Source: Promethearchaeota archaeon (GTDB lineage Archaea; Asgardarchaeota; Odinarchaeia; Odinarchaeales; JBHLKK01). Taken from it: DNA of 24,765 bases. Made by a program: the position numbers and the translations under genes. The notes under the pieces were generated by a model that was not told where the DNA came from, made no database searches, and worked only from the letters and a program-made list of their open reading frames with translations. The stretch covers positions 1 through 24,765 of the forward strand of contig JBHLPL010000017.1 of NCBI GenBank assembly GCA_048939465.1, in the 5' to 3' direction. Of the stretch, positions 2,084 through 17,285 are shown piece by piece (position 1 is the first letter of the stretch; every line of letters starts with the position of its first letter).

Positions 2084-2114
2084 GTAAACTACTCCTCCCT
2101 TACAGAAGGAGCTT
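2084..2114 (-). repeat. Hairpin repeat copy B
   Basis: Minus strand AAGCUCCUUCU-GUAA-GGGAGGAGUAGUUUAC; 8-bp stem with GNRA loop; 21/28 identical to copy A, with a compensatory A-U to U-A change. Confidence 0.75.
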
Positions 2115-2124
2115 ATGGCTATGC

Positions 2125-2156
2125 TTGACCTCAATTCCCTTTCAGGCTTTGGATTC
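2125..2156 (-). repeat. Possible degenerate repeat copy C
   Basis: Minus strand GAAUCCAAAGCCU-GAAA-GGGAAUUGAGGUCAA; only the CCU-GAAA-GGG core and an imperfect stem are kept. Confidence 0.3.
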
Positions 2157-2336
2157 ATCACATGTCAAATCAGGAGGTGGTTTACAGCGCCTCGGCTCGG
2201 TAGTCCACATATAACGTCGGGCTATATACTTCGTCCTTTCAATTCTCCGCGCAGGTCATTAACTGTTTCCACATCAGAGAGAGGTGTGCCTTCAGACTTA
2301 TTTACATGTCCGGCCCAGAAGTGTTTAAGGACCTCT

Positions 2337-2387
2337 CAATTTCTCTCCGCCCTTTCGTGCGGAGTCTCCTTGAGGTGGTTTAGATGA
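2337..2387 (-). repeat. Hairpin repeat copy D, overlapping the SD and start codon of the NDP-sugar gene
   Basis: Minus strand CUCCGCAC-GAAA-GGGCGGAG hairpin; 2361-2387 is 24/27 identical to 14147-14173 (copy F). Confidence 0.7.
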
Positions 2388-6882: not shown

Positions 6883-6957
6883 CACTAGATATCAGAGCAG
6901 GAAGAATTGGTGAAGGGAATAGCAAACTAGTTGCTTGAGTTCATTGAGGGCTCAAAA

Positions 6958-7638
6958 ATGGAAGTCTTTTGGGATAGGCAAGTGAAGCTTCAGTTTCCTG
7001 AATTGAAAATAGCTTTTGGAACAGTCGAGAATATAGTAGTAAAGCCCAGTGGAAATATGCTCGATCACATTGAGAAAAAGATTCTCGAAGAAGCAAGAGC
7101 CAAATACACGCTTCAGAACCTGAAGGACGAGCCAATCATACGTATGTATCGAGACTTCTACTGGCTCTTAGATATTGACCCGACAAAAACAAGACCGGCT
7201 GGCGAGGCATTGATACGTCGGGTACTGAGAGGAAATAGAGTTCCGAGAATATTGAATGTTGTCGATGCATACAATCTGGTGTCCATCGAGACACGTCTAG
7301 CTTTCAGTGCTTATGACCTTGATAAGCTGAATCCTCCACTGACAGTCCGCTTTTCAAGAATCAATGAGACGTTTGTGGGCATGGGGAAGGAAATTCCTCA
7401 AAAGTTGACAGGTAAAGAGATTATTCTTACTGATCAAAGACAAATAAGGAGTCTTTATCCTCATAGGGATGCCAAGAATTCAAGGATTACTAGGCTGACA
7501 AGAAGTATTTTGCTTGTTGTTTACGGGGTGCCTGGCATTGAAGGAAAGGTCTTGGAGGAAGGACTGACAAAATCATGTGAGTTAATTACGGCAATCGCAG
7601 GAGGAACGGCAGGAGAGATCCAAGTAAGCTACCCCTAG
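6958..7638 (+). CDS. Stand-alone B3/B4 domain protein (PheRS-beta editing-like, tRNA-binding)
   Basis: YRDFYWLLDIDPTKTRPAGEALIRRV, NVVDAYNLVS, AYDLDKL, YPHRD. ORF open from TTG 6931. Confidence 0.88.
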   Translation: MEVFWDRQVKLQFPELKIAFGTVENIVVKPSGNMLDHIEKKILEEARAKYTLQNLKDEPIIRMYRDFYWLLDIDPTKTRPAGEALIRRVLRGNRVPRILNVVDAYNLVSIETRLAFSAYDLDKLNPPLTVRFSRINETFVGMGKEIPQKLTGKEIILTDQRQIRSLYPHRDAKNSRITRLTRSILLVVYGVPGIEGKVLEEGLTKSCELITAIAGGTAGEIQVSYP

Positions 7639-7857
7639 CTTTCGTAAGGGACTTCCTCCCCCGGATTCTGAATCGATATTAACTCTCCTTTTGGAGTGAT
7701 AAAGACTGGGGAGATTCTGGGCCGATTCACTTCCCGCCTTGAGCCGCCACAGACTTCTGGATAACCCTCCCGTGAAGCATAAGTCAGAGGGGCTGTTACC
7801 CACGCAGACCTCTCCCTTTGATAGCCTCCCTGCTTTCGAGGTAACAGATCCTGGCCC
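7624..7857 (-). ncRNA. Candidate structured ncRNA (~234 nt) ending in repeat copy G; TnpB omegaRNA / IS200-IS605 right-end-like
   Basis: Several helices: GGGCC 7857-7853 with GGCCC 7723-7719; CUGUUACC 7847-7840 with GGUAACAG 7800-7793; CCCUCU 7791-7786 with GGAGGG 7770-7765; CUCCCC 7713-7708 with GGGGAG 7661-7656. Terminal CCCUUAC-GAAA-GCUAGGGG-UAGCUUAC matches the repeat family. TATA box TTAAATAT at 7880-7873. Confidence 0.5.
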
Positions 7858-7862
7858 TAAAT

Positions 7863-7882
7863 ACTTAAGAGGATATTTAAGT
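7863..7882 (-). promoter_or_regulatory. TATA box inside an inverted repeat, upstream of the candidate ncRNA
   Basis: Minus strand TTAAATAT at 7880-7873; ACTTAA (7863-7868) / TTAAGT (7877-7882) inverted repeat overlaps it. Confidence 0.45.
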
Positions 7883-8049
7883 GTAAAGCAATTCATCGCC
7901 ATGATTTCGAATGGCGTCTTCTTGCGATGAGCAGACAAAATCGTCTGGATGGGATTTTCTGAGAGCGTTATGGATGTGCTCTTAATTCTTCTTTATAGGC
8001 AACATATATTTAGCTTAGAAACCATTAATAGATTTGAGAGGAATTAATA

Positions 8050-9315
8050 ATGACCGCACCCGTAAGGATAGCCTTTGATGAAACTCATAACGAAGGGGGC
8101 AGACTTCAAACCACCTATTCAAAATTGAGAGAAAAACTTGAAGAGGAAGGGTTCAACTGCTTCAGCATAATCGACTTCCCCGTCGTTCTGAAGAAGCTCC
8201 AAGAGTTCAATATTCTCGTCATTGCAGGACCTGATCTTTCGAAGTTTCGTCAGACAGAAATTCAGGACATAATTAAGTTTGTTGATACGGGTGGTGGGCT
8301 GCTAGTTATGTCTGACGCCGGCGGCGACCGAGGACATATGACAAATCTAAATGGCATAACTACATCTTTTGGAATAAGATTCAATAACAATCAAGTGACT
8401 GATTCGAGGAATAATCTGGGAATAGATACAGTCCCTATAATAACTGATTTTAAAAACCACGAGATTGTAAAAGAAATAGATAAGGTCTGTTATCGAGCTG
8501 GCTGCAGCTTGGCTGTATCAGGCAATGCCCGCCCAATCGCACTCTCCAACCGTATAGCTAATCCGCAATCAGTCCCCATAATTGCAGTAACCGAATATGG
8601 ATTGGGAGCAGTAGTTGCGGTCGGAACATACGAGATGTTTCGTAACGAAGGATTGGGCGGAATTGATACACCACAGAACTCTCAGCTTGCATTGAATATA
8701 TTCCGCTGGTTCGCCAAGATGCCCAAAGTCATTCCCGTCGTTAGTGCGGAGGTCATCTCAGAGAAGCTCAAAATGGAAGAAGACTCACCAGCAGTATTAG
8801 AGGCTGATTCAGAAGCCCCTGCTCCTTCGATGAGAGATCTTATTCCGAGTGTCGTGGAACAGGTCAAAGCTCACTCATCTTCAATCAAAGAATTAGAGAA
8901 CCTACCTGCCGAAATTAAGAAGATCGGAAGTACTCAAGGAAAACTGAAAGCTTCTCTTAGAGATTATGAGGATCAGCTGAAATCCTTTGGAAATCTTAGG
9001 ACTCAGGTAGATGCAATTAATGAGAGAATTGGAAAAGCCGCTCCTATTGATGAAGTTAAGAAAGTAAAAGAAGCTTTGAACAGAATCAGAGGTGAAGTAG
9101 ACAATTCAGTGAAGATATCCGAAGAGAAATCCGAAAAAATGCTGGCCTTGAGCATTAAGATTGATGCTCTAAGCGAGAGAATTCAAGCTCTTGAAGGTAA
9201 CCTAGGGCAGATAGGCGAAAAGCTATCAGAATTGGAATCGGAGATTGCCAAACCAAAACGTCGAGGAAAAAGAAAGAAACGAAAGAAGTCTCAGAATTCT
9301 TCTTCTGAAGCTTGA
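8050..9315 (+). CDS. GIFT/DUF4350 (GldG/IFT52-like, class I GATase-like fold) domain protein with C-terminal coiled coil and basic tail
   Basis: IAFDETHNE, FNILVIAGP, IIKFVDTGGGLLVMSD, GAVVAVG..EMF are typical of this domain; residues ~270-400 are heptad-rich; tail KPKRRGKRKKRKK. Confidence 0.7.
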   Translation: MTAPVRIAFDETHNEGGRLQTTYSKLREKLEEEGFNCFSIIDFPVVLKKLQEFNILVIAGPDLSKFRQTEIQDIIKFVDTGGGLLVMSDAGGDRGHMTNLNGITTSFGIRFNNNQVTDSRNNLGIDTVPIITDFKNHEIVKEIDKVCYRAGCSLAVSGNARPIALSNRIANPQSVPIIAVTEYGLGAVVAVGTYEMFRNEGLGGIDTPQNSQLALNIFRWFAKMPKVIPVVSAEVISEKLKMEEDSPAVLEADSEAPAPSMRDLIPSVVEQVKAHSSSIKELENLPAEIKKIGSTQGKLKASLRDYEDQLKSFGNLRTQVDAINERIGKAAPIDEVKKVKEALNRIRGEVDNSVKISEEKSEKMLALSIKIDALSERIQALEGNLGQIGEKLSELESEIAKPKRRGKRKKRKKSQNSSSEA

Positions 9316-13494: not shown

Positions 13495-14127
13495 ATGAGT
13501 GCCTCGGATGTACCCAAGGATCAGGAAGAAGAGAGGGAAAGACCCACACTTCTGAACAGGATTAGAACATATGTGAGAATTACCGGTATAAATGAAATCG
13601 CGAGACGGTATTTTGTAATGAATGCCTTCGATGGGGCCTTGACAATCCTTGGGATTATTATGGGTGCCTATGCAATAGGAGCCATCGATCCGAAAGTTAT
13701 TATAGGCGCAGGTCTCGGCGGAAGCTTAGCAATGGCAATCTCAGGAGTCAGCGGAGCTTATATGACCGAGAGCGCAGAGAGACTTAGAGAGTTAGAGAGA
13801 TTAGAGAAAGCGATGCTGAAAACACTGGACAATACTGTTCAGTCAAGAGCGATTAGATTCGCATCCATATATGTAGCCGTAGTGGATGGAGCAGCCCCAT
13901 TAGCTGTTTCAACGATTGCAATAGTTCCTTTCATTCTATCCCAAATAGGCCTTTTCGAAGTTGGGATTGCAGTTATTCTATCTGTAGGCGTTAATCTTCT
14001 TATACTCTTCTTGCTTGGTGGATTTCTAGGGAGAATCTCAAAAAGAAACGTAATCATCTCTGGTCTAAAGATGGCGGCCGCAGGGATCGGGACAGCACTT
14101 GTTGCATTGTTGCTGAATCTTCTGTAG
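13495..14127 (+). CDS. VIT1/CCC1-family metal (Fe/Mn) transporter-like protein
   Basis: RRYFVMNAFDGALTILG, AMAISGVSGAYMTESAE, LFLLGGFLGRIS. ORF open from 13468. Confidence 0.88.
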   Translation: MSASDVPKDQEEERERPTLLNRIRTYVRITGINEIARRYFVMNAFDGALTILGIIMGAYAIGAIDPKVIIGAGLGGSLAMAISGVSGAYMTESAERLRELERLEKAMLKTLDNTVQSRAIRFASIYVAVVDGAAPLAVSTIAIVPFILSQIGLFEVGIAVILSVGVNLLILFLLGGFLGRISKRNVIISGLKMAAAGIGTALVALLLNLL

Positions 14128-14173
14128 ACTACCCACTCTATCTGAAGGAGTCTCCTTGAGGTAGCTCAGATGA
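14124..14173 (-). repeat. Hairpin repeat copy F (stem decayed), filling the gap between convergent VIT1 and methyltransferase genes
   Basis: gtagactac-ccactctatctgaaggagtctccttgaggtagctcagatga; left half aligns to copy E, right 27 nt are 24/27 identical to copy D. Confidence 0.7.
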
Positions 14174-17236: not shown

Positions 17237-17285
17237 GTGAACTACTCCACTCTTTCGGACGGAGTCCTCTTACGGAGAAGAAGAT
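17237..17285 (-). repeat. Hairpin repeat copy E
   Basis: Minus strand AUCUUCUUCUCCGUAAGAGGACUCCGUCC-GAAA-GAGUGGAGUAGUUCAC; 42/49 identical to copy A 15 kb away; two hairpins kept through G-U wobbles. Confidence 0.8.

Follow-up and report, generated by a model that had tools for sequence, protein, structure and literature searches.

Positions 7624-7934 on the minus strand are, in our judgment very probably, occupied by a 311-nt tnpB-deleted, non-autonomous miniature (PATE/MITE-like) of an IS1341-type IS200/IS605 element. The window to which these coordinates refer is the whole 24,765-nt stretch of contig JBHLPL010000017.1, from the genome assembly of a Promethearchaeota archaeon. Within it, a B3/4-domain gene (6931-7638, plus strand; Pfam B3_4, E = 2.1e-24) and an IFT52/GIFT-like gene (8050-9315, plus strand) bound a gap of 410 nt, and this gap holds, on the minus strand, a segment (7624-7857) that an earlier note had described as an orphan, omegaRNA-like structured RNA with its own TATA box. 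The segment is indeed GC-richer than its surroundings, as that note had it (52-55% in 7600-7850 versus 36-47% in the flanks). A search of the segment against Rfam, a check that the note had proposed, came back blank, with neither a TnpB-associated nor any other family matching; nothing reached a gathering score and the E-value search returned noise only (E above 5), and a scan of the segment for tRNA and tmRNA found none. RNase P RNA or SRP RNA had been suggested by motif resemblance, and both were dropped because of the blank Rfam search and the multi-copy nature of the family.

The identity of the RNA follows from its relatives. A DNA search of the genome to which the window belongs (G000; 1.96 Mb in 152 contigs, 91% complete) returned paralogous copies at 65-71% identity, and two other genomes of the genus, G001 and G002, carry further copies. 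Conservation among these copies begins upstream of the TATA box and comes to a sharp end at GTTCAC (window 7624). In an alignment of 11 copies, those at G002:C94 and G001:C76 carry coding sequence where the others have the promoter module, and this sequence reads as the zinc-ribbon and RuvC-III motif of TnpB; the ORFs at the two loci match Pfam Cas12f1-like_TNB (E = 2.9e-19 and 2e-17). As the tnpB ORF of G001:C76 has its stop 11 nt before the right end, the conserved RNA of ~180 nt lies within the tnpB 3' end and reaches the end of the transposon. A position that overlaps the 3' end of tnpB and finishes at the transposon end is what defines a TnpB omegaRNA. Homologous RNA is found at the tnpB 3' ends of G001:C76, G002:C94, G002:C180, G007 and G018, some of these genes being intact, and the omegaRNA reading of the earlier note is upheld on this point: we take the segment to be a TnpB omegaRNA scaffold on the strength of its homology to tnpB 3' ends in sister species.

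The NCBI entry for the protein encoded at G001:C76, which we refer to as the cognate TnpB, assigns it to the RNA-guided endonuclease InsQ/TnpB family and gives a Candidatus Hodarchaeota MAG as its source. Of the candidates scored, 408 are related to it at E ≤ 1e-10, most of the named ones being from Asgard or other archaeal lineages, and it matches the structures of ISDra2 TnpB with E = 3.6e-6. As a separate observation, this protein (L012:1507-2760, minus strand) has Gly at the position of the RuvC-II catalytic Glu of ISDra2 TnpB (VFGDL versus AVEDL), the comparison being one pairwise alignment, to a related AI-designed nuclease; the substitution appears to resemble the published rearranged RIIr-5 clade and is offered as a lead only. 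The tnpB at G002:C94 (L006:355-1668) is split into ORFs of 131 and 300 aa and is probably broken, and the omegaRNA at this locus is the top-scoring copy of the family (210 bits) despite the split gene.

That the element arrived by insertion is indicated by the orthologous locus on contig C134 of G002, which matches the window up to 7627 and then again from 7989, with only 40 nt between. Read by hand, this locus has TTTAC followed at once by the sequence that lies past the right end in the window, where the order on the minus strand is TTTGT (7939-7935), the element (7934 to 7624) and then the flank. As judged from these sequences, the window element is a mobile insertion, and the orthologous site in the sister species is empty. 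The ends can be placed only to within 4 nt, since GTAA is also present at the empty site, and as paired profile hits the left and right ends lie 302 nt apart. The pentamer just 5' of the left end is TAM-like; it is TTTGT here, TTTAT in most copies and TTTAC at the empty site. At the other end the segment does run into the last codons of the B3/4 gene, as had been claimed, the final 15 nt to 7624 encoding V-S-Y-P-stop. The C-terminus of the window gene is QVSYP-stop versus GVKPL-stop in the G002 orthologue, and we read the last four codons and the stop of the gene as derived from the inserted right end.

The left part of the element retains the control region of a transposon gene. A subterminal hairpin (7897-7916, minus strand; 6-bp stem, 8-nt loop) is kept in the hits of a left-end profile as well as in full-length tnpB elements, and the TATA-type box claimed by the earlier note, TTAAATAT, stands at 7880-7873 on the minus strand, ~23 nt upstream of 7857. 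In the copies of G000 the conserved upstream part consists of the hairpin, a GATGAATTGC motif and the TATA box, and a box of this type recurs at identical offset in 36 of the genome's 48 left-end modules, that of the tnpB element on C2 among them. Both full-length copies (G001:C76 and G002:C94) have the same hairpin, a GATGAATT(A/G)C motif and a TTTAA(A/G)T box, and then the tnpB start region; since hairpin, motif and box all stand directly upstream of tnpB in these copies, we conclude that the box is putatively the native tnpB promoter of the transposon itself and not one newly acquired. Approximately 12 codons of the tnpB start region (7813-7853, minus strand), which align with the tnpB starts of the same two copies, are retained in the window, and directly after this remnant (near 7813) lies the internal deletion junction, with the last codons of the RuvC-III motif fused straight to the omegaRNA core (7803-7624). 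The junction is essentially identical across all minis of the class to which the window element belongs, as seen in the alignment of copies, and a short GCCA repeat, read directly from the alignments, borders the deleted part in the full-length copies. Apart from the start codons, the protein-coding content of the element amounts to a frameshifted C-terminal remnant. We regard the window element as an internal-deletion derivative of a tnpB transposon.

To describe the RNA, a covariance model (R1) was built from the core of the family, which in the window spans 7624-7803 on the minus strand. The model opens with a 5' hairpin (H1), followed by a long-range helix (H2) that encloses a branch of H2b and H3; the G007 and G018 variants have lost this branch. 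A second long-range helix (H4) encloses a GAAA hairpin (H5), and the scaffold is completed by the GAAA-capped right-end hairpin (7631-7652, minus strand; helix 9 of the model), which shows compensatory changes and is common to the tnpB elements on C2, C55 and C105. The folding-energy test set by the earlier note proved not to be decisive; as a single sequence the 234-mer fails it, folding no better than its dinucleotide shuffles (z = +0.72), neither strand of the segment does better than shuffles, and the structure is visible only at the level of the family. There, in an alignment of 30 copies to the model, paired cells make up 89% of the total versus 41-54% with slid partners, and double-sided changes are found at 24 of 40 pairs versus 10.1 in shuffles (0 of 500 shuffles reach 24), figures which lean towards structure because the alignment was fitted to the model. 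In this manner the long-range helices and GAAA-type hairpins proposed from the window copy are present and are supported across the family by covariation.

The same comparison did not support the pseudoknot that had been proposed between GACUU (7785-7781) and AAGUC at either 7654-7650 or 7756-7752. Three copies have G-C in place of C-G at pair 21-27 of H1; the change leaves H1 intact but is incompatible with the pairing of 7785-7781 with 7654-7650, and we reject this pairing because the compensatory changes favour the local hairpin; as a partner 7756-7752 was also rejected, this site falling in the variable stem of H3. A different pseudoknot with the 3' terminus is plausible. The loop of H2 contains GUGAAC, which stays there even in the variants that have no inner branch, and in most copies it is complementary to the 3' GUUCAC; both segments are near-invariant, no covariation is seen between them, and such a pairing lies beyond the reach of covariation for this very reason. 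In the window copy the loop segment is GUGAAU (7725-7730, minus strand), a candidate partner, by complementarity, of the terminus at 7624-7629. A further long-range helix, which pairs CUGUUACC in the tnpB 5' remnant with GGUAACAG, is perfect in the window copy, and by eye only ~6 of its 8 pairs hold in three other minis of G000.

The element is far from alone. R1 scores the window copy at 164.9 bits (E = 3.6e-37) and has 29 matches in G000, 9 in G001 and 13 in G002; across the phylum, 14 of the 151 sampled genomes have matches, several of them at tnpB 3' ends in other genera. The left-end profile finds 48 modules in G000, that of the C2 tnpB element among them; a TTTAT(C)-like motif stands before almost every one, and the sequence further upstream is unrelated between copies. 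At the opposite end a right-end profile finds 31 right ends (E ≤ 0.01), each followed by a different, unrelated flank, and paired ends in the genome fall into size classes of ~210, 245, 283-303, 333-343, 386 and 429 nt. On these profile matches the genome has at least 30 miniature mobile derivatives of IS200/IS605, the window element among them. Larger elements are also present: a 1.3-kb element on C2 has an intact 384-aa TnpB, and C105 carries a Y1 tnpA (PF01797 match at C105:1180-1545, E = 7.5e-37), the sole tnpA found in the genome, together with a 433-aa tnpB. The two intact TnpBs are 28-38% identical to the cognate TnpB, and the RNAs of the genome's own intact tnpB elements match R1 only in the right-end hairpin and terminus, the GTTCAC-type terminus being shared with the C2 and C105 elements and the C55 copy ending in GTTTAC. 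A tblastn search of the 91%-complete assembly with the cognate TnpB returned remnants only.

Remnants and compound arrangements of the family were also encountered in passing. A 429-nt remnant of the same subfamily (G000:C151:216-644) has ~90 N-terminal tnpB codons and a weak omegaRNA match, and a 5'-truncated one (G000:C69:36781-37011) has kept TnpB residues 346-417. At G000:C10:12063-12506 a further left-end module comes 24 nt after a 333-nt mini, in a tandem or nested arrangement, and for this further module the locus gave no right-end match. The window itself contains a second mini of ~300 nt, belonging to another subfamily (2084-2383, minus strand), with a TTCAT motif and a right end that closes with AGTTTAC. 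The left end, which has a hairpin and a CTTAAACA box, adjoins the ATG (2384) of an NTP-transferase gene, such that the promoter of this gene must lie in or beyond the element; the 90-aa ORF (2115-2387) that overlaps the mini is probably spurious. Three micro-elements of ~47 nt, all on the minus strand (1999-2045, 14124-14169 and 17237-17283), consist of a TAM-like motif, the left-end leader and one hairpin fused to a terminus AGTTCAC or AGTCTAC. A loose pattern search of the genome gave ~13 such units among other matches, and they probably correspond to what the earlier note had labelled repeat copies.

Two further loci bear on how miniature and full-length forms are related. The mini at G000:C127 (L010/L028) and the element at G001:C76 (L012/L030) occupy the same orthologous insertion site, as do the mini at G000:C77 (L004/L039) and the element at G002:C94 (L006/L026). 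At both sites G001 or G002 holds a full-length or broken tnpB and the flanks are homologous on both sides; core identity is 86% and 72%, similar to or below that of the flanks (75-88%). The presence of mini and full-length forms at the same orthologous sites is unexplained by simple one-off transposition. Deletion in situ was considered and is a misfit, as the junction region of the C127 mini is like that of other minis and unlike its full-length orthologue. A mini-like junction at C127 makes conversion between forms likelier than repeated deletion, and the comparison suggests that conversion between miniature and full-length forms at a fixed site is the more likely process.

It is reasonable to propose the following course of events at the window locus. 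The mini went into the end of the B3/4 gene, 3' of a TTTAT-like motif, and retains the left end with its hairpin, the archaeal promoter of the element itself, ~12 tnpB codons, the ~180-nt omegaRNA scaffold and the right-end hairpin and terminus; the single TnpA of the genome is a candidate for mobilising such minis in trans. From the retained promoter, a scaffold transcript of ~234 nt might be made that reads on into the flank, the first 16-20 bases of which would, after processing, act as the guide. Were a compatible TnpB to bind this RNA in trans, the RNA could guide it to cut the allele that lacks the element (TAM plus flank), in the manner of homing. The present copy shows its age. It keeps 39 of 49 consensus pairs versus 47-48 in the tnpB-linked copies of the same genus, its H5 loop is AAAA in place of GAAA, its right terminus is CTTAC versus TTCAC in the family (GCTTAC versus GTTCAC), and its identity to any other copy does not exceed 74%. 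The nearest relative of the window copy, and of most minis of G000, is the consensus-like tnpB-linked copy at G002:C94, a star-like pattern of relationship that is typical of independent decay of transposon copies. Because this copy is old and decaying and the search of the assembly yielded no cognate TnpB, we think it most likely that it is an ageing selfish relic, one which may still be transcribed.

These observations also bear on other explanations of the locus. The stand-alone omegaRNA of the earlier note stands insofar as the element has no tnpB of its own, has its own promoter and ends at the right end; it does not stand as an isolated orphan, given the 30 or more minis in the genome. 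The further suggestion that the locus has been domesticated, as a stand-alone guide-RNA gene whose product would act in trans to program TnpB or a nuclease-dead protein like TldR, in the service of regulation or defence, we consider improbable. Promoter and scaffold are retained, both here and in many minis, two intact TnpBs are present in the genome, and activity in trans with compatible effectors has been reported for stand-alone omegaRNAs (PMC10691335); however, the promoter is simply that of the transposon, the locus is empty in the sister species, the assembly yielded no cognate TnpB, and the erosion and star-like divergence of the copy speak against this reading as well. The would-be guide (7604-7623, minus strand) is, as had been stated, the flank directly 3' of the scaffold from 7623 downward and antisense to the 3' end of the B3/4 gene. 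Across the genome its 20 nt match their own flank only, the search for targets elsewhere giving chance-level partial matches, and in this empty sister site, self-matching guide and eroded copy we see no sign of domestication.

The same orientation raises the matter of antisense regulation, in which read-through past the right end would yield an RNA antisense to the B3/4 3' end that modulates the gene, whether as a by-product or as an exaptation. The geometry permits this, with the promoter facing into the B3/4 gene and the first T-run lying ~55 nt beyond the right end, but the arrangement is not conserved, the site being empty in G002, and other minis adjoin unrelated flanks; we hold this reading to be more doubtful still. 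As for a protein, an ORF on the minus strand (7582-7938) is open for 118 codons and its translation has VTSKAGRLSKG and then VGNS, and were it a real gene the RNA structure would be incidental. Against this, the ORF has no Pfam match and no significant similarity to TnpB (E = 0.99), it starts upstream of the TATA box and crosses the transposon end into antisense B3/4 sequence, the residual similarity to the TnpB C-terminus sits in a different frame, and other minis have frameshifts in the same stretch; the probability that it is a gene is accordingly negligible. The reading that we prefer remains that of a decaying, tnpB-deleted mini.

Both this kind of element and the idea of guides acting in trans are already in the literature. 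Stand-alone omegaRNAs were first reported in the 2021 OMEGA study, and mobilised ones with neither effector nor transposase are found in genomes that have effector loci and act in trans, their biological role being stated as unknown (Altae-Tran et al. 2023, PMC10691335). The window element is like those loci in having a mobilised scaffold, a flank-encoded guide and no effector or transposase gene, with effector loci in the same genome. It is unlike them in being Asgard archaeal (Hodarchaeota-like) and in its TATA-box promoter inherited from tnpB, and also in that no cognate effector was found in the assembly, activity in trans being only hypothetical here. PATE-like, gene-less IS200/IS605 elements often encode omegaRNAs that need TnpB in trans, and a homing model has been described (Meers et al. 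2023, PMC10055086); the term PATE originates from Haloquadratum (PMC3119063). Like PATEs, the window element is gene-less and shares its ends and subterminal hairpins with tnpA/tnpB elements, is multi-copy, adjoins a conserved TAM and depends on TnpA and TnpB in trans. As a difference from PATEs, the copies in this genome are old and divergent (65-90% identity) and not near-identical, and they form graded reductions of ~1.3 kb, 429, ~340, ~300, ~245, ~210 and ~47 nt.

With the omegaRNA of ISDra2 (8EXA, 8H1J, 8BF8) the family shares a scaffold that overlaps the tnpB 3' end and finishes at the right end, a guide directly 3' of it and, plausibly, a pseudoknot with the 3' terminus; the likeness is one of gene layout, the cognate protein being distant from that of ISDra2 and having Gly at the RuvC-II Glu position. 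The guide RNAs of TldR are comparable in that an omegaRNA-type scaffold is used away from transposition, but they are immobile and target conserved host promoters, whereas the window element is mobile, with an empty site in the sister species and a guide that is its own flank.

On the reading given here, the unannotated, GC-rich segment of an Asgard archaeal genome that had been taken for an orphan RNA is a transposon relic that carries a guide-RNA scaffold, and such minis could easily be mistaken during annotation for novel non-coding RNAs or small genes. One outcome of the analysis is that an archaeal omegaRNA family absent from Rfam now has a covariance model and a census. It is conceivable, but in our view unlikely, that the dozens of promoter-equipped minis serve the few remaining TnpBs as a distributed guide library in trans, or act on their neighbours through read-through antisense or RNA-guided regulation; if this were true, mini and full-length forms at one site would interconvert by RNA-guided cutting and recombination. 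In any case, the genome is a possible natural test case for the use by TnpB, in trans, of guides that belong to gene-less minis.
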